DNA of 64,000 nt from Thermomicrobiales bacterium (GTDB lineage: Bacteria > Chloroflexota > Chloroflexia > Thermomicrobiales > CFX8), in the NCBI GenBank assembly GCA_041390865.1, contig JAWKPC010000009.1:4933-68932 (forward strand). The letters are read 5' to 3'. Below, piece after piece: positions 9,436-33,418 of this stretch (the stretch's first letter is position 1; every line of letters begins with the position of its first letter). The notes below the pieces were generated by a model that saw only the letters and a program-made list of their open reading frames with translations, was not told the origin of the DNA and did not search any database. The translations under genes and the position numbers were made by a program.

Positions 9436-10101
9436 TTATGTAGGTTCTCCAAGCCGTTCGATCCGGTGTCTGACGCTGCTCCGGTACCGCTCGGCGAGTT
9501 CTGGCAGCGCAGCCAGCTCCACCAGCGCGTCGAGGTCCTGCCCCCGGCGGGTGGCCGCAACCCTCCGGATCGTCCATTCCGGGTGAGGGCGGCCAATCCG
9601 CGTGAATTCCTGGCCGGCTTCGACAGCGCCTTCCCGGAGCGTCCGGTAGTACCAGCCGGTCCAGCCAAGCTGCTCGACGCGGGCCGTGAGGTTCGGGATG
9701 CCGTGGCGGCGGGCGATCTTCCAGCAGGGCCCGCGCGGGCTGGTGACCTGGATTACAACCTCGCCGATCTCGAAGGTATCGCCGATGCTGACGCGATCCT
9801 CGTCGAGCCCGTCGATCGTGAAATTCTCGCCGAACGCTCCGTAGGGAAATTCCGGGCGGTCCAGCTCCTCGCGCCAGTGTGGGTAGTGCCCGGCCGAGTA
9901 GCCGAGGATCGACTGATCGGGGCCGCCGTGAACCGCGAGATCGTCCTGCCGGTCGCCGGCCAGGTTCAATTCTCCCAGCCAGACGGGACCTGTAACCGAC
10001 TCTTTCAAAATCGCGCTCGACCACGAGCGGTCCGGCCTGAACCCGCCTTCGTCGCCGAAGATCTTCGGCATCCCCACCTGGATCGAGACCAGACGCACCA
10101 T
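9436..10101 (-). CDS. MOSC domain-containing protein (YiiM-like)
   Basis: MVRLVSIQVGMP..LAGDRQDDLAVHGGPDQ..GAFGENFTIDGLDE..PCWKIARR. The ATG at 10099-10101 follows GGAGGGGGAG. The longer track ORF (to 10314) is an upstream extension with no protein-like content. Confidence 0.85.
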   Translation of the reverse strand: MVRLVSIQVGMPKIFGDEGGFRPDRSWSSAILKESVTGPVWLGELNLAGDRQDDLAVHGGPDQSILGYSAGHYPHWREELDRPEFPYGAFGENFTIDGLDEDRVSIGDTFEIGEVVIQVTSPRGPCWKIARRHGIPNLTARVEQLGWTGWYYRTLREGAVEAGQEFTRIGRPHPEWTIRRVAATRRGQDLDALVELAALPELAERYRSSVRHRIERLGEPT

Positions 10102-20515: not shown

Positions 20516-20732
20516 CCTTCCCCTCCAATCGGTGGAGAGTGTCTGTCTCGTTGCCGCCGAACCCGGAGAAGGTTCAACGGCCGGCTACATCAGGATTGTC
20601 ATCCCATCCCCGCAACACAGATGCGAAGAATGACGGGGCCGAGTTACAGGTTCGTGCCAATTCGCCGTTCGGTGTTCTCCTCCTCTGGGCTCATCCCTCG
20701 ATAGCTTCTCTTAGCCTTGCGTCGAGTTCCCG

Positions 20733-20764
20733 ATAAGAATCCGCTAAGAACCCCTCGATACGAT
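20733..20764 (+). promoter_or_regulatory. Site A: tandem heptads at 11-bp spacing plus a -10-like hexamer (SARP-type promoter candidate) upstream of the LuxR-family gene
   Basis: ATAAGAA (20733-20739), tccg, CTAAGAA (20744-20750), an 8-nt spacer cccctcga, then TACGAT (20759-20764). An inverted CTTAG lies at 20710-20714. Confidence 0.4.
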
Positions 20765-20931
20765 GCGGTCATACGATCGTGAAACGTGCGAATGCCGCAT
20801 GGGTCGGCGCTGTACCGGCCGTGCATTCCAGTAGCCGCTCGGCCACTTGAGAACAAACCGGGCAGGTATGAGAACGAGCAGCGGTGGCGCTTCACGTTAT
20901 CGGATTCAATGCGCCAGGAGGGGGCAGAACG

Positions 20932-21258
20932 ATGGAACAGCTAGCATGGGTAGTTCATCGCTGCGAGAGCGAGCGCGCGAGCAGCGAGCCTCCCCGATGG
21001 GTCGAGTACGAGGCTACCTTGCCAGCATCCACCGGAGATCTGAGCGTCAGGGAGCTCGATGTCCTCGAGCTCGTGGCGACCGGCAGGACCGACGCCGAGA
21101 TTGCGGATAGCCTCTCGATCAGCCGCCGGACGGTCGGCGCCCACATCAGCAATATGCTGAACAAGACCAACGCCAGCAATCGGGTCGAACTCGTTATCTG
21201 GGCGCTTGTCAACGGCGTCCTGATGCTGACGATGCGGGAATCACTATCGACGGCCTGA
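20932..21258 (+). CDS. LuxR/FixJ-type HTH protein (stand-alone DNA-binding domain)
   Basis: ..LSVRELDVLELVATGRTDAEIADSLSISRRTVGAHISNMLNKTNASNRVEL... The ATG at 20932 follows GGAGGGGG. The track ORF starts at 20884. Confidence 0.75.
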   Translation: MEQLAWVVHRCESERASSEPPRWVEYEATLPASTGDLSVRELDVLELVATGRTDAEIADSLSISRRTVGAHISNMLNKTNASNRVELVIWALVNGVLMLTMRESLSTA

Positions 21259-21297
21259 CTTTTCTTATCCCGAGCCCTGAATGAATCGACCATCGAA

Positions 21298-21327
21298 AGA
21301 GCCGCCCGCGCGGGCGGCTCTTTTGTG
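21298..21327. terminator. Rho-independent terminator, usable from both directions
   Basis: aGAGCCGCCcgcgGGCGGCTCtttTGTG sits between the stops at 21258 (+) and 21342 (-). Confidence 0.7.
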
Positions 21328-21341
21328 CTGTCCGACTGGGT

Positions 21342-21548
21342 TTATCCTCGTGGATGGCGGCCTTCCTGGTAGAGCCAGCGTAGGAGCTGGAGACAGCGCC
21401 AGTGGTGGTTCGTCTCGACCTCCTCGATCAGCGGGTGGTAGCGCTCACGCATGGCCACGATGCGGGTGATTTGCTCCTGGCCGAACCCCGCGCGTTCGAG
21501 ATCCTGCCGGCTGATCGTCCGCGTGGTCTGGCCGGTTCCGTTCGTCAT
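21342..21548 (-). CDS. small hypothetical protein (68 aa)
   Basis: ATG preceded by GGAGAC. Last gene of the same-strand run 23080 to 21342. Confidence 0.4.
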   Translation of the reverse strand: MTNGTGQTTRTISRQDLERAGFGQEQITRIVAMRERYHPLIEEVETNHHWRCLQLLRWLYQEGRHPRG

Positions 21549-21626
21549 GGCTGCGTCTCCAATCTCAGCTGATCTCTTGCCGCCGAGAGCGGGACAGTCC
21601 AGGCTGCCCCGTCCTCGACGATGGGT

Positions 21627-22097
21627 CTAGTAGTCGAACTGGTCGATCGGGCGATTGCCTCCCGGATAGACTTCGCTATCCGATCCCTTGTCCGGGGCGC
21701 AGAACTCCGCGATCGAGCCGGGCCCTTCATGCTGGGCCGCCGGGTCCATCGGATCCATCAGTCCCTCACCCTGACAGGTGGCGGGATAGTCCAATCCGGC
21801 GTCCGGATCGACCTCGTCAGCGGACCCTTCCGCGCCTGCCACGGTGCCGCAGTACTCGGCGACCGACTGCCCCGGGTCGAGCAACAGTTCCTGGATCTGC
21901 GTGTCCATCAAGCCTTCGCCATGACAGCGCGTCAGGCTGACGTCCGTCGATTCGGCTTCGTCATCACCGCCGGGCGTCTGGGCGGTGCCGGCCTCGCTCA
22001 TCAGTAGCACGGCCAGCAGGCCGATAAGTCCGACTGCGAGAGTTGTGGCGAGGAGTCCCCGGAGGCTCTGCCGCTGTGGTTGTGCGATCTCATTCAT
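21627..22097 (-). CDS. membrane-anchored/secreted protein with an internal Cys-pair repeat
   Basis: AAGGAG lies 10 nt before the ATG. A TM/signal (LLATTLAVGLIGLLAVLL) is followed by two repeats, C(H/Q)GEGLMD..x..AE(Y/F)C. Confidence 0.6.
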   Translation of the reverse strand: MNEIAQPQRQSLRGLLATTLAVGLIGLLAVLLMSEAGTAQTPGGDDEAESTDVSLTRCHGEGLMDTQIQELLLDPGQSVAEYCGTVAGAEGSADEVDPDAGLDYPATCQGEGLMDPMDPAAQHEGPGSIAEFCAPDKGSDSEVYPGGNRPIDQFDY

Positions 22098-22127
22098 CGT
22101 CGTGTTTCTCCTTCAATATGCGTCGTA

Positions 22128-22655
22128 CTAGTAGTTCAGTTCTCCAGCGCGAAGCTGGAGGACGTCATCCGGGCTCGGGTAGTAGTTCTCGCATTGATCG
22201 AGGATCGCGAAGTGCGCAACGTCCTCGAATTCGTCCTGCCAGAGGATCTCGTCGGAGAACATGTCGAGGTCGATAACGTCGACTCCCGTTTTCTGGTTGA
22301 AGTAGGGGTCGATCCAGTCATCCTCGAGTGGCGGATCTTCCGCGTAGAAGCCGACATTCGAGGCGATCGTCCCGGCTGGTTGGGCGACGATGTCGTGATC
22401 CCAGAGGTTGTCTTCCAGGAACTGGATCGTCTTCCCGTCCAGGTTGTCCCGGCCGGCGATCTCCTCGAGCGGTGTGCGGTCGAGCATCGCGTAGCCGGCC
22501 GTGGGCTCGTACTGCATGGTTTCGATGACCTCAGGCGTGAAGGAGCGATGGTTCGCATGCTTCCCGGTAAGTCCATCGGCTCCAGCGCTGAGCGGGAGCG
22601 CGACCAGGCCGAGCGCGAGCCCGAATCCGGCGAGCGTATGTTTGAGGCGGTTCAT
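22128..22655 (-). CDS. secreted acidic hypothetical protein
   Basis: AGGAG precedes the ATG at 22653-22655. The signal peptide is MNRLKHTLAGFGLALGLVALPLSAGA. The 328-aa track ORF is an upstream extension. Confidence 0.65.
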   Translation of the reverse strand: MNRLKHTLAGFGLALGLVALPLSAGADGLTGKHANHRSFTPEVIETMQYEPTAGYAMLDRTPLEEIAGRDNLDGKTIQFLEDNLWDHDIVAQPAGTIASNVGFYAEDPPLEDDWIDPYFNQKTGVDVIDLDMFSDEILWQDEFEDVAHFAILDQCENYYPSPDDVLQLRAGELNY

Positions 22656-22927
22656 GCTAGGATCTCCTTTGAAAGTGGTTGTCGATGCGTCGATGTCCGC
22701 TGAAGATCCCCGAGCGATGCGGTCCCGTTCAGCTGGTGTGCCGCGTTGGTCGGGGATTCTGCGCTCGTGCTGTCCCAATAGACGGCTCCTTTCCGCTCGT
22801 TGTGAATATCGGGGTGAAGCGAGCGCCCGCAGGATCGGTGTGCGAGCGCTCGAACCGGATAGCGGCTGGGCCGGGGAATCACCCAGCTTCCCCTGTTGCG
22901 GCCAATCGCGGTTCCCGCCGGGGCTCG

Positions 22928-23080
22928 TTATTGAGCCTGCTGCCGAGGCGGACGAAAACGTCCCACCGGCCGGCGAATGTTGATGTCCTGACCGACGAAG
23001 ACGCGTGCCTTCCGGTCTCTCTCGGCCGCGCGAAGAGTCATTCCTGCGGAGCTCGGCTTCGCGTTCGATAGGTGGAACAT
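22928..23080 (-). CDS. 50-aa ORF with strong RBS (hypothetical)
   Basis: GGGAGG lies 5 nt before the ATG (23078-23080). The product is MFHLSNAKPSSAGMTLRAAERDRKARVFVGQDINIRRPVGRFRPPRQQAQ*. It sits about 40 nt downstream of the site B promoter candidate. Confidence 0.35.
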   Translation of the reverse strand: MFHLSNAKPSSAGMTLRAAERDRKARVFVGQDINIRRPVGRFRPPRQQAQ

Positions 23081-23125
23081 GACAGCCTCCCTTCTGACTG
23101 CATGGCATCGCCATGTCCTGATCAG

Positions 23126-23193
23126 AGAATAGGAGGCCGGCTTAGCCCGCACTTAGGCGGGCAAGCGGCGTCTTCTTAGCGTTGGACTAAGAA
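23126..23193 (-). promoter_or_regulatory. Site B: CTAAG-type heptads plus a -10-like hexamer downstream of the LanC-like gene
   Basis: Read on the minus strand: TTCTTAG (23193-23187), tccaacg, CTAAGAA (23179-23173), then CTAAGTG (23156-23150), then 11 nt later CTAAGCC (23145-23139), a 7-nt spacer, and TATTCT (23131-23126). Confidence 0.35.
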
Positions 23194-23358
23194 CGTGGGA
23201 GTGCCTTACGAAGAAAGAGTCGAGGCCATATTTATGTCATCTTGACCGAAGCGGAGCGAAGTCGAAAAATCTCCATAAATCCTGGATGCTTCCCTGGAAA
23301 GGAGTCTTCTTCCGGGACCGTCTCGACGGGCATTGCTTTCGGATCTGCTCCAACATCC

Positions 23359-24640
23359 TCATCCGTGGAGCAAAATCGACGGCAGCGCAGGATCCGCCAA
23401 CCGCAGGTAGAACCGCGCGATCCCGGCCAACCCCAGCATCAGATTCGGCGTCCAGCCGCTGTGCGTCCACAGGGCCAGTCTCGCTCTTCCGGCCCGTAGA
23501 TCCTGATCCCGGCCTCGGCGACCGCCCGGCCAGTTTCCCGAAGCGCTCGAATCCCTCACCCAGCATCTCGCTGCCGAGTGCGAGGATCTCAGCGTTCCCG
23601 GCCAGTCCATGGCAAAGTGAATAGTTAACCGTCCCATCCTCCAGCCCGTTGATGACGGCTTGTTGGGTGGTATTCAGCGCGGTGATCGCCTCGTCGCGAT
23701 AGCGATCGTCGCCGGTCAGCTCCCAGGCACGCAATCGGGATAGGGCGATGCCTGGTGCGCCGTGGCACCAGAACGTGGCATAGGGAAATGGCCCGTCAGG
23801 GCGCTCATCGAGATCATCGACGGTGCGGAAATCCGGCCAGTTGCACTCGTCCGGGTCGAACCAGCTCCGCTCGAAATCGAACGCCCGGGTCGCAACATCG
23901 TGGAATGGCTCATCACCGGTCGCCTGCCACAGTTCGAGCAGCGCCATCCCGATCCCCGCCGCGCCGTGGGAGTAGCCGGTCAGGTTCGGGCTATCCGGCA
24001 GTGCGATCGATGGCCAGGAGCAGCCCCGCTCATTGCACTCCGCCGCCTCGACCAGCCGCTCGCCGAGTCCAGTGGCCCGGTCGATCAGCGCCGGTTCATC
24101 CAGCATCTCGCTCAACCGCAGCAGAGCAATGACGGCGCCGGCGCTGCCGCTCAGCAGATCGTGCTCGTGATCTTCGGTGAGGTCGGCGTCGAGGGTGTCG
24201 AGTAGATTACGCGCACCGGAAACGATATCTTCAGCCTGCAGGAGCCGGCCAACCCGCGCCGCAACGAGCGCCAGTCCCGGCCGGCCGGTATAGAGCCCCA
24301 ACTGGACGGGCGCTTCGATGACCTCTGCCCGTCCCAGCGCCTGCCGGATCGCGCCGAGCGCCGTCTCCCGCGCCTTCTCATCACCCGTCGCCACGGCCAT
24401 CTCGGCCAAGAACAGCGCCACTCCACTCGACCCGCCATACGGCTCCGGCCCGAGCGAGCTATAGGTCATCCCCTGATGCGCCGGCGCAGTCATATCCCAG
24501 GCTCGACCCCAGCCAGTTGCACCAGCCTTCGTGCCAGAACGCTTCCCCGATGATCTCCCGGCCAATCGCCCTCGCGACCTGGAGATACTCATCCGTCAGC
24601 GCTTCCCGGTACCGGCAAGGCGGTGCCGTGCCTCCCCGCC
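23359..24640 (-). pseudogene. LanC-like lanthionine cyclase, frame-disrupted (at least 3 frame changes); 5' boundary with the HopA1-like gene unclear
   Basis: ORF 23237..24592 carries GSSGVALFLAEMA, FWCHGAPGIALSRL and SLCHGLAGNAEIL. The family C-terminus WTPNLMLGLAGIARFYLRLADPALPSILL is in another frame (ORF 23359..23637). The N-terminal ..EYLQVARAIGREIIGEAFWHEGWCNWLG is in a third frame (about 24490-24600). Confidence 0.75.
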
Positions 24641-25752
24641 GTCCGTCTCGTCAAACGTAAAATCGTAATCATCGACCGAACCGGGTTCAGATACGGCCGT
24701 TCCGGATCGATCCCCGCCTCCTCGAACGTCTCGATCACCACCGCCAGCCGATCCTCGACGGTCTCGGCGCCCTGCTCCCAGCCCCGCACCAGTCCCTCGG
24801 CCAGCAGCCGGCAGCGGTGCATCCCGAAGCTGTCGCCTCCCGGCGGATCCTCGGCTAGCCCGACTCCCGGCGCGATCCGCTTCGTCAGCGCCGGAACCGG
24901 ACGCTTCAAATCGTCGCGCACCTCGCGGTAGACCTCCGCCAGCAGCGGCACGGCCCGATCGAGATCATCCTTTAATAGATAGAGCACACCCGCATCGCAG
25001 CGGTTGTAGCGGTCCGGGTGATTCACCACCTTCAGCCGGAAGGGCACCTTCGCCCCGTTCAGCCGCCCGGTGATCCCTTGAACCAGCGTCGCCGCACCCC
25101 AGGAATAGAGGTTCCAGTACACCCGCACGACCAGATCAGCCGCGTCATACGGCTCATCGCTCAACACCGTATAGAACCCCGGCGAGATCGCCGGCAGCTC
25201 CTTCGGGAGCTTCAGGTCCACTTCCTCCCCGACCCCCGGCAGCCCATCCCCGCCGAAGACGATCTCCTCCGGCTTCGCCCGTAGCGTTAGCCCATCCCTC
25301 CGAATTGCCAGCTCGACCCCGCCATCATCACCATCCCGATGCTCGACAAGCAGCCACCCCGCTTGCCGCGTTCCATTCCCGGCGTTCGCCGCCGACAGTT
25401 CATCAACAAACTCCGGTAGCCCGTTCGCCCGCGTCGACCCCGCATACGGCGCCCGGCTCGGCCTGGCCCGCCCGGCCTGGTAGAAATCTTCATACAGCCG
25501 GTTCGTTAGCGTCCCTCCGAGATGCCCCCGCGCCGCATCCGGCCGGATCCGGAAGATAGGCCGCACGTGCTCCTGCACGTTCGACGACACCGCCCCGAAC
25601 CAGGTGAATTGAATTGCTGAGTTTTGAGAAGTGGAATACACAGTCTCACGAAGACGGGCGACGGGCTCATCTATCAACGCCTTAGCCGTAGCTAATACGC
25701 CTTCCACCTCTGTCATTTCGAGCGGAGGCTTTGCGGAGTCGAGAAATCTCAT
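24589..25752 (-). CDS. HopA1-family protein (candidate phospho-Ser/Thr lyase component)
   Basis: 387-aa ORF with a family-like core (..VVRVYWNLYSWGAATLV..FRLKVVNHPDRYNRCDAGVLYLLKDD..). The last 30 or so codons look off-frame. An alternative frame reads ..PYLNPGSVDDYDFTFDE. Confidence 0.7.
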   Translation of the reverse strand: MRFLDSAKPPLEMTEVEGVLATAKALIDEPVARLRETVYSTSQNSAIQFTWFGAVSSNVQEHVRPIFRIRPDAARGHLGGTLTNRLYEDFYQAGRARPSRAPYAGSTRANGLPEFVDELSAANAGNGTRQAGWLLVEHRDGDDGGVELAIRRDGLTLRAKPEEIVFGGDGLPGVGEEVDLKLPKELPAISPGFYTVLSDEPYDAADLVVRVYWNLYSWGAATLVQGITGRLNGAKVPFRLKVVNHPDRYNRCDAGVLYLLKDDLDRAVPLLAEVYREVRDDLKRPVPALTKRIAPGVGLAEDPPGGDSFGMHRCRLLAEGLVRGWEQGAETVEDRLAVVIETFEEAGIDPERPYLNPVRSMITILRLTRRTAGRHGTALPVPGSADG

Positions 25753-25867
25753 GCGACCACCGGAGGGGCGTTCACCCGAGATCTCTCCACTCCGCTTCGC
25801 AAAGCCTCCACTCCAGTCGAGATGACAATGTTGGTGCTTGGTTCGTCTTCAATGTTGAAAGCAAAGA

Positions 25868-26767
25868 TCACGTACCCGCTCCGTCCGGCAGCGGAATCCC
25901 GAACAACCCCTCCGCCGCATCCTCCGGCGCTTCCATGATGTTCAGGCTTAGCTGCAACAGCAGATAGATGTGCGGCGTTAGATGGGTCATCGTCTGGGTC
26001 CGCTCGTAGGCCGTCTGGATCAGCCGCGCCCCGGCGAAGCTCACCGACTTGATCGGCCGCTCCCGCGCCTTCGCCTGGTCGAACTCCATCGCCTCGACAT
26101 AGCTCTCCCAGAGAGCGCGGATCGCTGGCTGCATATCTTCGATCAGGTACTTCGCCAGTCCCTCGTACGGTTCGCCGCCAACGACCGGAATCGACAGCGC
26201 CCAGAACGCCACGAACTCGCTCAGCAGTGTCCCGACGTCCCAGCACGGATCGCCGATCCCCGCCATCTCCCAATCGATGATCTTTACCTCCGTTGGCCCC
26301 GTCTCCTCCTTCGGATACACAAGAATGTTGTCCCACTTGAGGTCGTGGTGAATCCGGCACCGGGAAGACCACCAGCTTTGAAGCGACCGAAGCTGGTTGA
26401 TGAGTGCCTTTGATATCTGAACTTCCCCGATCATTTGCTGGCTCCCGGCGCTCGCAAGGTACATGAAATGAGCCCGCGGTTGGCCCAGGTCAGTGGCCAT
26501 GGGTATGCGTCTTGTTCGTCATCCCACGGGGCGTCGGAGTGTAGTCGTGCCAGGACTTTTCCGAGATCGGCTGTGATTGAGGCGCCAGATGAAGTGGGGC
26601 CGAGGCGGCCCGGAAGGTTAGGCCGCCACCCTATGTCGATCGAATGTACCGTTGGAAAGTACGCCGAACTGTTCGTCCGTATGAATCAGCCATACGTCGT
26701 TATGCGATGAGTAATCGACTGCGGATATCGGACCTCGGGCAACAGCACCGCTGAATTGGAATCGCAC
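25868..26767 (-). pseudogene. APH/choline-kinase-type phosphotransferase (candidate lanthipeptide kinase), at least 2 frameshifts in the N-lobe
   Basis: The C-lobe is intact in ORF 25868..26500 (RIHHDLKWDNILV, IIDWEMAGIGDPCWDVG). N-lobe pieces lie in two other frames (..VDYSSHNDVWLIHTDEQ.., ..ADLGKVLARLHSDAPW..). A candidate GTG start is at 26765-26767. Confidence 0.7.
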
Positions 26768-26780
26768 CCCAGAAGAGGCT

Positions 26781-27648
26781 TTAGCACGGCGAGTTCGTTG
26801 AGCTATACGCCTGTTCCGAATCCGTGTCGAAGATCGTGTTGACGAAACCACCGACATTGGACTCGATGTCCTCAATGCGCAGTCGCTGGGCGATCTGCCC
26901 GCGGATGAATGTCTTGGCCGTCTTCGACCGGACGTGCTTGACCTGCGCGCGTGCGCGCACCCATACTGTTGTCCGTCCGAGCGGTGCATACCCATCAGCC
27001 AGGCCCGGCTCTTCGTAGACAACGTGCAGGACGTCCTTGTTCTGTATCTCGAGCCATTCGGATAGATCAACCTTGATGAAGAGACGGCAGATTCGTTGGT
27101 CGGTGAAGCGCCCGTCTGCGATCAGGAAATCATCTTTGTCAGCTTTGCTGAACTTTCCGAAGACAGAGCAGACCTCCTAGCCACCTCTCGAGCTTACCTT
27201 TTGCATCAAGTTGTTCGCTTGCGGCTGAGGCGGCATTGGTCGCCTTTTTCAAGTTGCATGTTGCTTTATCCCACTCACATGTTTTCGTAAAATCGATTTC
27301 TCCGACAAGCCACTCTTTGAACCAGTCGACTCGTTCAGAGCCTCGGTCTGATCCTCAGCATCCGTCGTCTTATCCAGAGCCTTCTTTATCTTCTCTATCT
27401 TCGCTTGGGCTTCGTACCCTCCTTTGTCTTCTTGTCATCAAGACTTCCCATAAGAACTCCGCCTGCGTCTCTGTTCTTCTTGTACCAACCAGGGCCTGTG
27501 TCTTCATTGCCGTCCTTAGTGAAATGCTCGAGAATCGTTCCAACAACATCCGTCACGAGACGGTTTCCTTAACCAGATGAACTCGCCGATATCGCCGTCG
27601 TCCCACTTGTAGCCTTCGAGATACACTCCGGACACGCTCTGAAGATCA
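26781..27648 (-). pseudogene. unassigned protein-coding remnant(s), readable only by switching frame at least 5 times
   Basis: Protein-like stretches in different frames: ..AKLDDLQSVSGVYLEGYKWDDGDIGEFIW, GNRLVTDVVGTILEHFTKDGNEDTGPGWYKK, AKIEKIKKALDKTTDAEDQTEALNES, VDWFKEWLVGEIDFTKTCEWDKATCNLKK, FGKFSKADKDDFLIADGRF..TIFDTDSEQAYSSTNSPC*. GC is lower than in the flanks. Confidence 0.35.
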
Positions 27649-28923
27649 TCAAGCTTGGCGTGTTGGATGATGCGGTTGCGGTTCTTTGCGGCGCCTGAGA
27701 ATCCGGTTCCTCGTCGTAGCCTCGTCACTCTCTGCGATCTCGTCAGAGATCTTGTCCTCCAGCGCTTTGCGAAGCGATGCATCATACATGTCTGTCTGGA
27801 TCGCAGCGATTTGGTAAAGTGCTTGGGCAACGGTGACCGGATCGACGTTCTCGGCACCAGAGATACGTCCCAAGATGTTCTTCAATAGTTCATCGAGGCT
27901 TTTGGACTCACTGCCGCTCATTTGTTCCTCAACTAGGTTGTTCAATATGACATGTCCCTGTGGTCGTCCGTATCCGACTTCTCGGTTCCACCTCCACTTC
28001 TTGTTCGGGACCCGCACAAACCGGTAGCCCGACAACTTGACGCAGGAACCTTCGATCAGGTCACGAACCTGCTGGTTCGTCAGTTCCGGCCGGATGCCGA
28101 AAATCAGTGCCGCCAGGCCGACCTGCAGGCTGGCGATTGATGTGCCAGCCGACCGGTCGAATAGCTGCCGGGCAGGTCTCCACTCGGACCGCGCTCGTCG
28201 AGCGATCTGACGCCGACGCCGCGTGCGACGACATCGAGATCGTTGCCGTACTGGCTACCCCAATCCCTGGGAAGCCTCGGGTCCAACTGCTTGCGCCGTC
28301 CGCGACGATCGATGGCCCCGACCGCCATGACCTTGGGATGCCGGGCCGGAAAATCAACCCCGGAAGGGTAGCGTTTCAGTAGTTGCCCGCTGCCGCACGG
28401 AGAACCAGTCCGGAGTCCCAGGCGCGCTCGATTGCCCGATGCATCTCGGGCGTTTCGGCGACCTTCAAGCTGATGTTGATGACTCGTGCGCCATGTGCAA
28501 TTGACCAGAGGATCGCGGCGGCGACCCAGGCCGGCGACGGATTTCGTTCGCCGCTGACCTTTACCGGCATGATTGGAAAGCCAGGGGCAGTACTGTCCAG
28601 GACATGCTGCCGGGAATCTCGCTGAATCCCCGCTGCAGCTCCGCGACGCTCGTTCCGTGTGGTTTCGATCTGAGCCGGTAGCTCGCGTCGTAGTTTGGCT
28701 GGTGGGAAGCAGGCCGGGATCTGTTTCTGCGACGCTGCTCGTATTCCTCGGCATTGAAGTGAAGTGAGCGGTCGACGTAGTTGAGATTGGGATGATGGAG
28801 ATCAAAGCCTGAATCGATGACCGCGATGATTGCTCGCTCTTTCCCAGGCATCTGGATGTCCGGGAGAGCGCTCCACGGTTTGGGCCCCTCTGGTGTTCTG
28901 CTCTGGCAATCAAGTCGGTTCAT
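27649..28923 (-). pseudogene. S8 (subtilisin-like) serine peptidase without signal peptide, at least 3 frameshifts
   Basis: Catalytic motifs are spread over frames. AIIAVIDSGFDLHHP (Asp) and HGTSVA (His) are in ORF 28561..28923. AAAGNY (Asn) is in 28376..28570. VMAVGAIDRRG..YGNDLDVVA is in 28104..28913. AGTSIASLQVGLAALIF (Ser) joins ORF 27649..28035. The start lies 16 nt after the SARP gene stop. Confidence 0.7.
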
Positions 28924-28939
28924 CTCCTCATCGTGGTTT

Positions 28940-31900
28940 TCAGTCCAGATACAGGATATGGCCCAGTACTTGGCAGACTCTTAGCGGTTTCCGTGCGTTT
29001 GCAGCATGCGAGACTCGCTGTCCAGAATCTATCTGACGCTGCAGGCGCGACATCCCGAGTTGGTGCGCGGTCTGTTGGGCAGATGAGGAGAGTTCAATCG
29101 CTCGTTCACGGTCTCCCGCTGCATCGCGTTCAGGAGCACATCGGCCAGAATTACCCGCGAATGGGCTACATAGACAGGCAATCTCATGGATTTGTGCGCT
29201 TGATACGCATCTTCCAGGTGCTTGACGGCGACGGTCCAGATTGCCAAGGCAAGCGGCAAGCAAGCCCAGATAGAGCGAGACGGTGCCGTAGATCACGACG
29301 TTCCCACCGCCACTTACGATTTGGCCATCATGAGGCTTCAGGAGGTCATAGAGCACGCTCGTAGCATGTTTGTCATTGACTGCTGTCGCCGTTAGGGACA
29401 GCATTGCGATGTTCGGTAACCACAGCAGATTCCTCGGAATGTCAGCGAACTCTTTGTTCGTCAGGCGTGCAATCTCATTTCGAGGCCCCTCTGTTTCACC
29501 GAGATCGCTTTCGATTAACTTGACAAGGATCGAGTAGTGGGACGGATGTGAATGCCGGCCGGCAACTTCCTGAGCTAGCTCCAGAATGTCTTGTTGCCGG
29601 TCCTGTTCACGGTAGATGAACGTCAACTGCGTTAAATAGGCGCCCAGCGACTGGACTGGCGCAGCCCGCCGACCAATCGAAAGAGCTTGCTCCGCCAGCT
29701 CTTCGGCTTCTTTGAAATCGCCGCGTGCGAGAGCGTACATTGCTTGTCGGAACGTTGCAGCCCAGATGTTTCGGGGTTGACGAATCTGATGAGCGATCTC
29801 AGAGTAGACACGATTCTCCTGGTTTGCGGATTCGAGATCGCCAGCTTCTATGAACTCGAATATTCGCCATGCATGGCTCAGGAGCAATTGCTCTCGATTA
29901 TCGAGTTGGGTTGCTAGCTTGATGACTTCTGATGTGTTGCGCAGACGCTCCGAACTATTGTCCGGTCCTTGAAGAACGTAGTGCCTTGCCAGCTTTGCAC
30001 GCATCTCGATCTCGGCGTCGGCATTATCGGATGCGATCTTCAGGGCCTCTCTGACCATTTTCTGTATGCGCGTTGCACCGTTAGTAATGGCGACGTTCGC
30101 TCCAGCGATGTCACGAACTAGTGCACCGAGTACCCGGACATAGAGTCGGGGATGTTGATCATCCAGTCGGTTTCTTGCCTCTTCAAGCAGAGCAACATAG
30201 GTGCCGTCGTAGTCACCCAGTTGGAACGCCGTATCCGAAATGCCGACAGCCGACCGAGCGTACAGGACCGGATCTTCTAAACCTTCCGCGAGGTCGACGG
30301 CCCGCTCATAGGCTGCCAGTGCCTTCCGGGCGTCTCCGACACTACGTTGTGATTGACCCAGAAGTAATAGCAGCTCGTGCTGGCTATGGGGATTAGCGTC
30401 AGCCTGTTGATCGAGGATGTTCAATGCCTCCTCGAAATATTCTCCGGCCTCTTCATAGGCGATGCCTGCCAAGGCCTGTTTCCCAGCACGCGTCAGATAC
30501 GTGACAGCCTGTGCATGAGCTCCAACTGGAACAGCGATCGAAAAGTGATGGGCGAGTTCGACGACATGATCGTCCGGATCTTCTGCAAAGCACTCTTCGA
30601 TTGCCTCTCCAGTCCGCAGGTGCATCCGCAGGCGGCGGGCCTGGGAGAGGTCGTCGTAGAGGGTCTGGCGGGTGATGGCGTGGGTGAAGCGGAAGCCGCC
30701 GGGGGTCGGGGGCGATTCGACGATCAGGCCGGTGCCGAGGGCTTCTTCCAGGGCGTCGAGCGTGGCCAGCTCATCCAGATCCGCGACCTGGGCGACGATC
30801 GGGAGCTCGAAATCGCGGCCGGAGACGGATGCGGTGGTCAGAACCTGGTGGGCGGTGTCGCTCAGCCGGGCCGTGCGCAGCGCGATCGTCTCCCGGATGC
30901 CGTGGGGGATCATCAGGCGCCAGGACCGGACGTCCTCCGGGTTGTTGAGTCGCTCTTCCTCTATTAGTAGGGCCACGATCTCACGAACGAAGAAGGGATT
31001 GCCCTCGGTCTGATCGTGGATTGCGGCGGCTAGTCCGTTCGGTGTCTCGCGGCTAGTCACCAGCTCGATATAGCGGTCGATGTCGGCCACACTCAGTCCT
31101 TCGAGGTTGATCCGCTCGTTCGCTTCGTGGCGAGCAAGCTGTCCGAGGGTGCGGGTTAAGGGGTGGCCCCGATCAACCTCGACGTGGCGGTAGGTGCCGA
31201 GGATCAGCAGGCCGGTCTCGGCGACCTCGCGAGCCAGGAACTCGAGCAGCAACAGCGACGAGCGGTCGGCGCTGTGGAGATCGTCGATGATCAGTGCCAG
31301 CGGCGCGCGCCCGGCGGCGTTCTTCAGGAAGGTTGTCATGCTGTCGAAGAGTCGAAATCGCTCGCCGTCGGGATCGAGCGGCGGCGGCTCCTCCAGATCG
31401 GGCAGCCGGTCGCGTAGCTCCGGGGTGATCCGTGCGATGTCGGCGGCCCCTGGTCCCATGACCTTCTGCAATTCGGCGGTCGAGCGTCCCTCGACGTAGC
31501 TGCGGACGATCTGCACCCAGGGCCAGTAGGCGGGCGCGCCGTCGCCCTCGTAGCAGCGGCCCCAGAGCGTGCGGACACCCTGAGAACCGGCGTAGCGCAG
31601 GAACTCTTCCGACATGCGCGTCTTGCCGATGCCCGGCTCGCCGGCAACCAGGATGATCTCACCTTCGCCGCCGATAACTCGCTCCAGCGCCTCCTGCAAG
31701 ACGCCGAGTTCCTGGCTCCGCCCGACGAAATCGCCGGCACGGCCGAGGAAATCGGCGATCGATTCGGTGATCTCCGGTCGGGATTCAGGTTCTGCCGTCA
31801 CCGGCTGTTCGACCGTCCAGGTCTGGAAGGGGAAATCGCCGGAGAGGATCGCGCCGTAGAGATCGTCGGTCTCCGGTTCCGGCTCGAGATCAAGCTCCCG

Positions 31901-32689
31901 TTCAAGGATTTCCCGGACCCGCTCGTACTGGCGCAGCGCCTGCTGGCGGCGGCCGGTCAACGCATAGAGCTCCATCAGCTGGCGATGGGCTCTTTCCCGG
32001 TCCGGCTCGATCGCGACAATCCGCCGCAATGCGTCGATAGCCGGTGTCGCCTCGCGGCGGGCAACATGCAGCCGGGCCAGACGGTCGAGCAGCGAAAGAT
32101 ACTGCTCGTGCAGAGCGATCCGGCGTTCTGCAGCCCAGTCCTCATAGAGATCGTCTGGCAACAGATCTCCGCGGTAGAGATCGAGCGTCTCGTAAAAGCG
32201 ACCGGGATCGTCTGCTGTTTGGAGATCGCGGGCGCGCTCTTCAAAGACATCGACATCGATCCAGAGGGGGGCGGCCGGGTCAAGACTGAGGATGCCGCGT
32301 TGGAGCCGGAGGATGCGGTTCGGTTTCTCGTCGGGTAGGAGCGCGCCGAGCGTTCTTCGTGCAACGTGCAGCGCCTGGTGGAGATTGTTCGAGCCGGCGT
32401 CGGGATCGAGATCCGGCCAGAGCAGCTCGACGAGCTGTTCGCGGAGGATACTCTGGCCAGGGGCGAGCACGACGATCTTGACCAGGCTGCGTGCTTTGGC
32501 CAGTCGCCAGCCGTCGTCGGGGATTTCGCTCGCTCCACAGGCGATCCGGAATCCGCCGAGCAGCTCGATGCGGAGCGCTTCCAATTGCGTTTCTGCCGAC
32601 ACCGCCCCCGCTTCCTCTCGCGGATGTAGTCCCTCACGTTCTGTGGGGTCGTGTTCGTGCAGTACTTGTTTAATTGACTGTGATAGCAA
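28940..32689 (-). CDS. AfsR-like SARP regulator: OmpR-type wHTH + BTAD + AAA/STAND ATPase + TPR array
   Basis: Intact 1249 aa. wHTH/BTAD: LRIELLGGFRI..LVELLWPD..YRGDLLPD..AHRQLMELYALTGRRQQALRQYERV. Walker A: LVAGEPGIGKTRM. The C-terminal half is TPR-like. Confidence 0.85.
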   Translation of the reverse strand: MLSQSIKQVLHEHDPTEREGLHPREEAGAVSAETQLEALRIELLGGFRIACGASEIPDDGWRLAKARSLVKIVVLAPGQSILREQLVELLWPDLDPDAGSNNLHQALHVARRTLGALLPDEKPNRILRLQRGILSLDPAAPLWIDVDVFEERARDLQTADDPGRFYETLDLYRGDLLPDDLYEDWAAERRIALHEQYLSLLDRLARLHVARREATPAIDALRRIVAIEPDRERAHRQLMELYALTGRRQQALRQYERVREILERELDLEPEPETDDLYGAILSGDFPFQTWTVEQPVTAEPESRPEITESIADFLGRAGDFVGRSQELGVLQEALERVIGGEGEIILVAGEPGIGKTRMSEEFLRYAGSQGVRTLWGRCYEGDGAPAYWPWVQIVRSYVEGRSTAELQKVMGPGAADIARITPELRDRLPDLEEPPPLDPDGERFRLFDSMTTFLKNAAGRAPLALIIDDLHSADRSSLLLLEFLAREVAETGLLILGTYRHVEVDRGHPLTRTLGQLARHEANERINLEGLSVADIDRYIELVTSRETPNGLAAAIHDQTEGNPFFVREIVALLIEEERLNNPEDVRSWRLMIPHGIRETIALRTARLSDTAHQVLTTASVSGRDFELPIVAQVADLDELATLDALEEALGTGLIVESPPTPGGFRFTHAITRQTLYDDLSQARRLRMHLRTGEAIEECFAEDPDDHVVELAHHFSIAVPVGAHAQAVTYLTRAGKQALAGIAYEEAGEYFEEALNILDQQADANPHSQHELLLLLGQSQRSVGDARKALAAYERAVDLAEGLEDPVLYARSAVGISDTAFQLGDYDGTYVALLEEARNRLDDQHPRLYVRVLGALVRDIAGANVAITNGATRIQKMVREALKIASDNADAEIEMRAKLARHYVLQGPDNSSERLRNTSEVIKLATQLDNREQLLLSHAWRIFEFIEAGDLESANQENRVYSEIAHQIRQPRNIWAATFRQAMYALARGDFKEAEELAEQALSIGRRAAPVQSLGAYLTQLTFIYREQDRQQDILELAQEVAGRHSHPSHYSILVKLIESDLGETEGPRNEIARLTNKEFADIPRNLLWLPNIAMLSLTATAVNDKHATSVLYDLLKPHDGQIVSGGGNVVIYGTVSLYLGLLAACLGNLDRRRQAPGRCVSSAQIHEIACLCSPFAGNSGRCAPERDAAGDRERAIELSSSAQQTAHQLGMSRLQRQIDSGQRVSHAANARKPLRVCQVLGHILYLD

Positions 32690-32712
32690 CGTAGCGAATA
32701 CCGATCATTAAG

Positions 32713-33189
32713 TCAATGCTCTGGGGCCAGATAAATGTGTGGTTCACTGATTGCTGCCCAACGCCCGCCGCTCTGGCGGAACTCCGTATTGATATGCCCG
32801 ATCTCGTGGCATTGCCAGTCACCCTCCTCCCGGTTCATCCCGCCGATGACCATCGAAAGCTGAACCCGATCATCTCGCCAGACGGCGGGTCGAAAGGCGA
32901 GGAAGCCGACTTCCTCGTCGAGGAGCAGCTGCTCTTCCGTCATGAGCTCGTCGAGCGCCAGAACATCGAGTCGCCGCGGAAGCTCGTCCAGCTTCAGCGA
33001 TTGAGCGAGGTTCGACTGCACGATCTTCATCGGGATTTCACGAAGCCTATGGCCTCTCGGGAAGATCTGGATTGGACGGCGGGTGCCGGGCAATCGTTCC
33101 CCGAGCATGACCGCGATCAGGACAATCTCCTGCAGGTATCCGAGAATCGAGTCTGAGCTGGTGTTCTGGGAATCGTAGCTGTTGGTCAT
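32713..33189 (-). CDS. hypothetical protein (158 aa), first gene of the SARP-containing run
   Basis: GAGGAGG lies 6 nt before the ATG at 33187-33189. The stop is 23 nt upstream of the SARP start. No family recognised. Confidence 0.5.
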   Translation of the reverse strand: MTNSYDSQNTSSDSILGYLQEIVLIAVMLGERLPGTRRPIQIFPRGHRLREIPMKIVQSNLAQSLKLDELPRRLDVLALDELMTEEQLLLDEEVGFLAFRPAVWRDDRVQLSMVIGGMNREEGDWQCHEIGHINTEFRQSGGRWAAISEPHIYLAPEH

Positions 33190-33386
33190 CGTAGGCCTCC
33201 TCGTTCGAGGGATAATGGCTGCCACCCGGAACACAACGTCCACCGGGAGAGCAACCCGGCCTTACCACCGGTTGCGGTTTTACATGTGCTCTGCCCCCCC
33301 GCTTCGCTTGGACGGTGCGTTGTGCCATTCGCTAGTAGGACCCGGCACTCATCGCGTGGCGCCTGCGAACTTAAGCTGTTGTCCGG

Positions 33387-33418
33387 AGTGTGAGCACCCG
33401 TTCTTAGCAATTTCTTAA
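33387..33418 (-). promoter_or_regulatory. Site C: tandem heptads at 11-bp spacing upstream of the hypothetical-SARP operon
   Basis: Read on the minus strand: TTAAGAA (33418-33412), attg, CTAAGAA (33407-33401), an 8-nt spacer cgggtgct, then CACACT (33392-33387, a weak -10). About 200 nt upstream of the ATG at 33189. Confidence 0.35.

Follow-up and report, generated by a model that had tools for sequence, protein, structure and literature searches.

Promoters activated by regulators of the SARP family, which are found mainly in actinomycetes, carry direct repeats spaced by 11 or 22 bp, of which the 3' one is placed 8 bp from the -10 element (PMC10936776), and the heptameric repeats overlap the -35 element (PMC10972967). 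In cryo-electron microscopy structures of the large SARP AfsR of Streptomyces coelicolor on the afs box of the afsS promoter (PDB 8k60, 8jke, 8hvr), two SARP domains sit side by side on two 11-bp repeats, contacting the first 8 bp of each but not the last 3; the pair engages region 4 of sigma and the polymerase core, and the ATPase/TPR part of the protein is inhibitory until ATP binds. A second large SARP, PimR (a SARP-LAL protein of the pimaricin cluster in Streptomyces natalensis), activates the LuxR-type gene pimM via heptads with 4-nt spacers (PMC10972967). Here we describe four paired-heptad sites, A to D, in a 64,000-nt stretch of contig JAWKPC010000009.1 from an uncultured Thermomicrobiales bacterium of the Chloroflexota (hereafter the window), which lie in and around a cluster of genes resembling those for peptides that are ribosomally made and modified after translation (RiPPs) and coding also for a large SARP and a LuxR-type regulator. 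Based on their sequence, arrangement and conservation, we consider it likely that these sites are activator-dependent promoters bound by the cluster-encoded SARP, which would make the whole an autoregulated SARP-LAL regulon. Among the papers listed by a literature search none joined SARPs and Chloroflexi, an absence that is weak evidence given the loose term matching of that search.

The sites share a single layout, namely a heptad, four nucleotides, a second heptad, eight nucleotides and a -10-like hexamer (nAnnnT); coordinates are those of the whole window throughout (Table 1). Re-reading of the sequence confirmed the positions of A, B and C, the three sites claimed in the initial annotation of this DNA, and to these we add a fourth and weaker one, D. 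It is the pairing of heptads that stands above chance: two copies of the exact pair TAAGAA-N5-TAAGAA are present in the window, whereas 1000 dinucleotide-preserving shuffles produced none, and TAAG-N7-TAAG occurs three times against a shuffle mean of 0.17, a count of three being reached by 0.1% of the shuffles. A search of both strands of the 64 kb for the looser pattern TAAG-N7-NAAG gives four matches only, all of them within 20.7-33.4 kb and each followed 7-8 nt downstream by a -10-like hexamer. Single TAAGAA hexamers, by contrast, are neither unusually rare nor enriched (11 copies versus 7.2 +/- 2.6 expected); the earlier statement that the hexamer is very rare in the window is therefore withdrawn, and the accompanying list of singleton copies (21262, 27450 and 46905) was incomplete, having overlooked those at 1720 and 49877. 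No canonical sigma-70 promoter with -35 and -10 elements was predicted at sites A-D, nor was a TTGACA-like hexamer found there 16-18 nt upstream of the -10; heptad 1 would cover about -38 to -32, overlapping or replacing the -35 region.

Relatives of the locus were gathered by scanning genomes and metagenomes with the SARP and by collecting contigs via homologs of the LuxR protein, the secreted protein and the conserved protein encoded directly upstream of the SARP (hereafter hyp). This yielded about ten further lineages, namely L001; L080 (identical to L002 and L171); L160/L162; L163/L164; L165; L166; L167/L172; L168; L170; and L169, the last being a LuxR paralog outside the cluster. The gene order in the relatives runs hyp, SARP, S8 peptidase, a small protein, APH kinase, a HopA1::LanC fusion, a 68-aa open reading frame (ORF), the secreted protein, more small proteins and, on the opposite strand, LuxR, and the outer flanks of the cluster vary among lineages. 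A position weight matrix built from the four window sites found its top match at the syntenic position in every locus (L080, L001 and L002, then L160-L172). Such sites lie upstream of hyp, 160-200 nt from it, in L001, L080/L171, L162, L163, L164, L165, L170 and L172; they follow HopA1-LanC, always with an 8-nt spacer, in L160, L163, L166, L167, L168 and L170; and they precede LuxR in L160, L166, L167, L168 and L169. All nine loci that cover the region upstream of the hyp and SARP genes have a site there, which supports autoregulation. In the opposite direction, a matrix derived from three orthologous sites only ranked window sites C (28.9 bits) and A (20.1 bits) first, with the best match outside A-D reaching 12.1 bits. 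Matches scoring at least 18 bits number 15 in 194 kb of syntenic loci, every one of them at a syntenic position, whereas 1.94 Mb of other SARP/LAL loci contain none; a match at position 12214 of L164, which falls in frameshifted SARP coding sequence, was set aside as due to chance.

The four window sites and their 21 orthologous counterparts together form a compilation of 25, in which TAAG is retained in 49 of 50 heptads. Throughout these 25, a G directly precedes heptad 2, the heptad starts are exactly 11 bp apart, positions 2 and 6 of the -10 hexamer are A and T, and the site is correctly oriented relative to the downstream gene; the spacer between heptad 2 and the -10 is 8 nt in all but window site B, where it is 7 nt. 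Between the upstream heptad and the -10 there are 19-20 nt, and the -10 hexamers resemble those of housekeeping sigma-A (TAnnnT). The rule for SARP boxes that the initial annotation had invoked agrees with the published accounts (PMC10936776, PMC10972967), and both the window sites and the 21 orthologous ones fit it. Alignments of the individual sites reveal how narrowly conservation is focused: around site A (alignment A4, 53% mean identity) there are 17 invariant columns, of which 16 belong to ATAAGA, GCTAAG and ATAnnnT and one is an A 7 nt downstream of the -10, and around site C (alignment A5, 52% mean identity) the invariant columns likewise cluster on the heptads and the -10. The alignment of site B (A3, 75% mean identity) is less discriminating because it is too conserved overall. 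In the divergent intergenic region, 20 nt upstream of site A, there is also a single heptad in inverted orientation (20707-20713; plus strand CTCTTAG, minus strand CTAAGAG); it is unpaired, and the site-A alignment shows no conservation of it.

Several sites have peculiarities of their own. The 7-nt spacer reported earlier for site B is indeed present in the window, but its orthologs have 8 nt (L168, for instance, reads GGGCCTCC where the window has GGCCTCC), and it should be read cautiously because the window contains many indels and frameshifts: between 12300 and 28900 the genes for a GAF-cyclase, a Ser/Thr kinase, HopA1-LanC, the S8 peptidase and the 68-aa ORF change frame relative to intact orthologs, which reflects either an indel-prone assembly of this metagenome-assembled genome or a decaying locus. 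Site B additionally has a distal heptad, CTAAGAA, upstream of heptad 1 by two helical turns (22 bp in four loci, 21 bp in one and 23 bp in two), and this forms part of a palindrome, YTTAG-N7-CTAAG, that is conserved in all seven loci and absent elsewhere in 2.2 Mb of loci. Right after the -10 of site B (23095-23125, minus strand), alignment A3 shows conserved palindromes, CTGATCAG and CATGGC-N3/4-GCCATG, in six of seven loci; a second regulator might use them as its operator, or they might form a 5' hairpin. Site D has a counterpart in L080/L002 (CTAAGAA-accg-TTAAGCG-N8-TACGTT), just past the SARP stop codon, and is absent from the intergenic regions downstream of SARP in L162, L163 and L167; given its absence from these distant orthologs it appears specific to this lineage and its nearest relative. 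Between the -10 of site C and the hyp start there is a conserved leader of about 160-190 nt (33190-33380, minus strand), with equivalents in L162-L165, L172 and L080, in which the blocks GCACCGTCCA / TGGACGnTGTG and CGGGGG / CTCTCCCG are able to pair (RNAalifold, -12.8 kcal/mol). Compensatory changes affect 9 of its 25 pairs, the covariation term is slightly unfavorable and Rfam gave no match to it; as the covariation support is weak, we do not put forward a structured leader RNA, although pairing is possible. The window as a whole likewise yielded no known RNA family.

The extent of the predicted regulon also deserves comment. Sites A and C match the two ends of the conserved block from hyp to LuxR, in agreement with the 12.7-kb functional module that had been proposed for this region, but synteny continues beyond site A on the LuxR side through a 249-aa gene, an M1-like peptidase, the GAF-cyclase and the Ser/Thr kinase with no more motif sites; hence the edge of the regulon is not necessarily that of the functional neighborhood. 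In L170 a second full site (9736-9771, minus strand; CTAAGGA tttg CTAAGAG, 8 nt, TACCCT) faces away from hyp, in the direction of a divergent operon encoding small unknown proteins and major facilitator superfamily transporters, suggesting that the regulon is larger in that lineage.

The candidate activator is, as originally annotated, the only SARP in the window, tblastn having found no second one. Its BTAD domain is recognized over the full length of the model (PF03704, E=6.7e-25, residues 144-282), and it is followed by AAA_16 (E=1.1e-27) and by TPR_12 and TPR_MalT matches; a Pfam search gave no match to GerE, the LuxR helix-turn-helix, at the C-terminus. Relatives whose match is confined to residues about 290-1190 are mostly LAL-like proteins. 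Over its N-terminal 300 aa the window SARP aligns to residues 24-301 of AfsR as present in the three structures above (phmmer, E=1e-9), thereby covering the DNA-binding domain (25-111), and also to EmbR (2fez; phmmer, E=3e-5). The AfsR residues that contact the DNA backbone, W74, P79, R94 and K95, are conserved as W, P, R and R, whereas Q and V stand in place of its base-reading T88 and R92; such a change would be expected with a different heptad, which reads CGTT(T/C)ATCG in the afs box and (C/A)TAAGA(A/G) here.

Thus, the locus shares with AfsR and the afs box a large SARP with ATPase (NOD in AfsR) and TPR regions, and two 11-bp direct repeats over the -35 region that are built of 8+3 units, the 3' one lying 8 bp from a suboptimal -10. 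Unlike AfsR, the window SARP has an ATPase of the AAA_16/LAL type, is cluster-situated and apparently autoregulated, and belongs to a member of the Chloroflexota rather than an actinomycete. With PimR it shares the LAL-like ATPase half and heptads in the promoter of a LuxR-family gene from its own cluster, for which site A would be the equivalent. However, PimR recognizes three heptads without -35 overlap and has pimM as its described target, whereas the predicted targets here also include the SARP's own operon and two other operons; moreover, the window LuxR is a 108-aa solo regulator without a PAS domain, and the cluster is RiPP-like, not polyketide. Small SARPs such as ActII-ORF4 and DnrI likewise use heptameric direct repeats over the -35, two or three per site and usually with 4-nt spacers (4-15 nt), but they have neither ATPase nor TPR, read another heptad sequence and come from another phylum.

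What is directly observed is the motif with its geometry and conservation, the fact that it co-occurs with the SARP, and the domain make-up of that protein; from these we infer SARP binding, activation and the positions of the transcription starts. We propose that the sites act as activator-dependent promoters of the sigma-A type, in which the tandem 11-bp repeats, each consisting of eight conserved bases, G-(C/A/T)TAAGA(A/G), and three variable ones, would stand in for the -35. By analogy with AfsR, two SARP domains would lie side by side on both heptads, at about -38 and -27, and recruit RNA polymerase via sigma region 4 and core subunits, with the ATPase/TPR part of the protein presumably gating activation. 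Site C would drive the hyp and SARP genes, resulting in positive autoregulation; site D would serve as an internal promoter from which S8, the kinase and HopA1-LanC are transcribed; site B would drive the operon in which the 68-aa ORF is followed by the genes for the secreted and Cys-repeat proteins; and site A would drive the convergent LuxR-solo gene, forming a SARP-to-LuxR cascade like that of PimR to PimM. The autoregulated SARP regulon suggested in the initial annotation is thereby supported by the promoter layout, by orthologous sites in about ten lineages and by the site before hyp and SARP in each of the nine loci.

A comparison across the Chloroflexota indicates that the heptad follows the regulator. 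Every locus whose SARP has the recognition helix NNLHQxLHxARRTL has sites of the TAAGAA type. In L005, the SARP of which has a similar helix (NNFHQVLHHARRAL), ATAAGAA-cagt-ATAAGGG adjoins the SARP gene in a different neighborhood, and there is no LuxR on its contig. A second SARP clade in this phylum with the helix NLRKNLHYLR (L003/L081, L140, L107 and L004) has two or three GGAACGT/AACGTTC repeats, with the same 11-bp period, adjoining the SARP gene (Table 1); the 3' repeat is 8 bp from TAGAGT or TACAGT in L003/L081, L140 and L107, and the hexamer of L004 is weaker (CATTTT). A change of SARP helix thus seems to go with a change of heptad within an unvarying geometry. From this, one could tentatively draw a wider picture, which at present we regard as rather doubtful: that the SARP promoter layout (8+3-bp units, the last 8 bp from the -10) is not an actinomycete speciality but a portable one in the Chloroflexota, with clades of matching helices and heptads (CTAAGAA versus GGAACGT), and that in the present cluster the SARP and the LuxR solo might read the same CTAAG half-site, as direct repeats and as a palindrome respectively, in a feed-forward loop over an unusual kinase/HopA1-LanC system that would act not on a classical lanthipeptide but on Cys-repeat proteins that are secreted or membrane-anchored. 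Another conserved element, unrelated to these sites, is TGTAATAAGGAtgcccTAAGATG; it was seen, in some cases as tandem copies, in L039, L043, L046 (e.g. 1149, plus strand), L049, L051, L058, L070 and L124, where it directly precedes short ORFs starting with MS(N/Q)... in LAL-regulator loci of Actinomycetes and Solirubrobacterales; the ORFs may encode small peptides behind conserved ribosome-binding regions.

Several observations weigh against the SARP as the activator of all these sites. The predicted leaders are long (about 80-160 nt for site A and about 160-190 nt for site C); the spacer of site B in the window is one nucleotide short; site D is weak in its second heptad (CCAAGTA), lies inside the 3' end of the SARP ORF and is conserved in the nearest relative only; and the conserved inverted half-site of B is not required by a SARP model. 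The match of the SARP itself to Trans_reg_C is weak (E=0.0024; 18.3 bits against a Pfam cut-off of 26.2), a good site (24.9 bits) precedes the LuxR paralog of L169, where the 10 kb on each side contain no SARP cluster, and, given the many frameshifted genes, the system in this particular genome may have decayed or its assembly may be indel-prone. Finally, the correlation of helix and motif is partly confounded by the shared ancestry of the whole cluster.

Among the other explanations, the one that survives best is that the LuxR/GerE solo itself binds CTAAG half-sites, autoregulating through site A and controlling the cluster including the SARP operon. Every ortholog of site A lies upstream of a LuxR gene, and L169 keeps ATAAGAA-tcgg-CTAAGTC-N8-TATCCT away from any nearby SARP cluster, so that LuxR could be the binder; furthermore, the conserved YTTAG-N7-CTAAG palindrome of site B has the arrangement usual for LuxR-type dimers. 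However, only that distal element of site B is palindromic in the manner of an inverted-repeat LuxR/GerE operator, the core sites being head-to-tail repeats with an 11-bp period that end 8 bp from the -10, as in the published SARP layout. Such head-to-tail 11-bp arrangements are also used by winged helix-turn-helix domains of the OmpR/PhoB type and are atypical of GerE-family dimers. Moreover, in the other Chloroflexota SARP clades the same geometry is seen with different heptads, and their contigs lack a LuxR gene; in L005 TAAG heptads adjoin a SARP gene in the absence of LuxR; and in L169 a SARP could act in trans. Because the correlation between heptad and SARP is in part a matter of common descent, we hold the SARP to be the likely rather than the certain binder, and the LuxR solo an unlikely one.

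A little less probable still is a factor encoded outside the cluster, for instance a response regulator of the OmpR family or an alternative sigma factor, that reads the motif with the SARP as one of its targets. Pho boxes, the PhoB/OmpR sites at which winged helix-turn-helix domains bind head to tail, are 7-bp direct repeats with 4-bp spacers that replace the -35, so a 7-4-7 direct repeat in this position is a Pho-box layout as much as a SARP one. In Streptomyces the afsS site is common to PhoP and AfsR (PMC10972967), and our scan covered 64 kb of this genome only. On the other hand, PhoB and OmpR are response regulators driven by phosphorylation, and there is no regulator with a receiver domain, nor any other factor of the kind envisaged, within the conserved block. 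The motif also travels with the SARP cluster across about ten lineages with differing flanks, and its sequence co-varies with the SARP recognition helix. The sigma-A-like -10 elements and the distance of 19-20 nt between heptad and -10, which misfits a -35, speak against an alternative sigma factor, and a reading of the motif as an extracytoplasmic function (ECF) sigma promoter was rejected on the same grounds. That the repeats are chance matches or remnants of repeated elements with no regulatory role, as the unenriched single hexamer and the degenerate site D might suggest, is highly improbable in view of the absence of the exact pair from all 1000 shuffles, the unrelated flanks of the different sites (which also rule out a mobile element), the concentration of conservation on heptads and -10 in the diverged intergenic regions of A and C, and the correct orientation of all 25 sites.

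Table 1. Predicted sites and genes of the SARP-LAL cluster (window coordinates), with the second class of repeats in other loci in the last row (coordinates of the loci named, strand in brackets)
Feature	Position	Strand	Description
Site A	20733..20764	+	ATAAGAA 20733-20739, tccg, CTAAGAA 20744-20750, 8 nt, TACGAT 20759-20764; predicted SARP-dependent promoter of the LuxR-solo gene
Site C	33387..33418	-	TTAAGAA 33418-33412, attg, CTAAGAA 33407-33401, 8 nt, CACACT 33392-33387; predicted SARP-dependent promoter of the hyp-SARP operon
Site B	23126..23193	-	TTCTTAG 23193-23187 (inverted half-site), 7 nt, distal heptad CTAAGAA 23179-23173, 16 nt, CTAAGTG 23156-23150, cggg, CTAAGCC 23145-23139, 7 nt, TATTCT 23131-23126
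Site D (new, weaker)	28953..28984	-	CTAAGAG-tctg-CCAAGTA, 8 nt, TATCCT; located in the SARP ORF at its final codons, with the S8-like gene downstream
hyp	32713..33189	-	Conserved 158-aa protein, always directly upstream of the SARP gene; start set by alignment
Large SARP (SARP-LAL type), 1249 aa	28940..32689	-	OmpR-like winged helix-turn-helix, BTAD, AAA_16 ATPase, TPR
S8 peptidase-like gene	27895..28913	-	Interrupted by frameshifts in the window, where the L166 S8 protein (355 aa) matches in three frames by tblastn; VIDSGFD motif visible
APH/LxmK-like kinase	25868..26503	-	N-terminal part missing or frameshifted; Pfam APH E=1.1e-8
HopA1-like lyase and LanC-like cyclase	23237..25752	-	Two ORFs in the window; HopA1 E=3.2e-42, LANC_like E=1.1e-50
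Conserved 68-aa ORF (MF[YH]L...ARVFVGQ...GESG)	22876..23080	-	Frameshifted in the window to an apparent 50 aa; strong ribosome-binding site; ATG 23080 behind GGGAGG
Secreted acidic protein	22128..22655	-	Signal peptide MNRLKHTLAGFGLALGLVALPLSAGADG; homologs P0001, P0002 and a 152-aa protein of L166
Membrane-anchored 156-aa protein	21627..22097	-	Repeated C(Q/H)GEGLxDP...GPGSIAE(Y/F)C units
Conserved 68-aa protein	21342..21548	-	...RERYHPLIEEVE...LQLLRWLYRQGRYPRG; adjoins LuxR in L160, L166, L167 and L168
LuxR/GerE-type solo regulator, 108 aa	20932..21258	+	GerE E=1.6e-18; converges on the minus-strand block, behind site A
GGAACGT/AACGTTC repeats	L003 1342 (-); L081 1861 (-); L140 762 (-); L107 6235-6244 (-); L004 9841 (+)		

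The genes that the sites would control (Table 1) include only two with DNA-binding domains recognized by Pfam in the conserved block, the SARP and the LuxR solo, the latter being 100% identical to P0025, a 108-aa protein named 'LuxR C-terminal-related transcriptional regulator [Thermomicrobiales bacterium]'. The hyp protein, which has 22 homologs at 48-100% identity, is 100% identical to NCBI R3A46_12375 [Thermomicrobiales bacterium], and a Pfam search gave no domain for it. Its AlphaFold2 model (pLDDT confidence score 76) has an N-terminal helix and a curved beta-sheet, with weak, NTF2-like matches in the PDB (template-modeling score about 0.25). As the hyp and SARP ORFs overlap or almost touch in the orthologs, they show translational adjacency, and hyp could be a partner or a ligand-binding module for the SARP.

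The remaining genes suggest a peptide-modifying system. A kinase, a HopA1-like lyase and a LanC-like cyclase encoded together are a trait of class V lanthipeptide synthetases of the LxmK/LxmX/LxmY type. The kinase matches NCBIfam LxmK with E=1.1e-12 and 47.7 bits, below the cut-off of 315, and is 72% identical to the APH proteins of L166 and L160. HopA1 and LanC form one fused protein in most orthologs (L160, L163, L166, L167 and L170), whereas the window copy shifts frame, and the S8 orthologs of related loci bear Pfam Peptidase_S8. The 50-aa ORF previously described downstream of site B is in fact a frameshifted copy of the conserved 68-aa ORF. No obvious classical LanA precursor peptide was found in the cluster, the candidates for this role being the conserved 68-aa ORFs and the membrane-anchored Cys-repeat protein. 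The latter, which lies in the site-B operon and has a 180-aa homolog in L166 (10923-11465, minus strand), carries repeated C(Q/H)GEGL(M/L)DP...GPGSIAE(Y/F)C units, and it is possible that this protein is an unconventional substrate of the kinase and HopA1-LanC enzymes. A 328-aa ORF had two homologs only, one of which led to the locus L160.

In conclusion, the locus appears to represent a well-supported but conventional circuit lying outside the phylum in which such circuits are usually studied, and the accepted view of SARP action is unchanged by it. What is new is the host phylum, the heptad sequence and the RiPP-like nature of the target cluster. The analysis provides a testable predicted operator, two copies of G-(C/A)TAAGA(A/G) followed by 8 nt and a -10, for an uncharacterized SARP-LAL protein of an uncultured member of the Thermomicrobiales, and it marks out four putative transcription units of a cryptic RiPP-like cluster. 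This might be of use for activating the cluster in a heterologous host, by supplying the SARP domain minus its inhibitory ATPase/TPR part and keeping the native boxes. Furthermore, the two pairs of heptad and recognition helix offer a small natural data set on how SARP specificity may be encoded, and the promoter geometry known from Streptomyces would now extend to another phylum.

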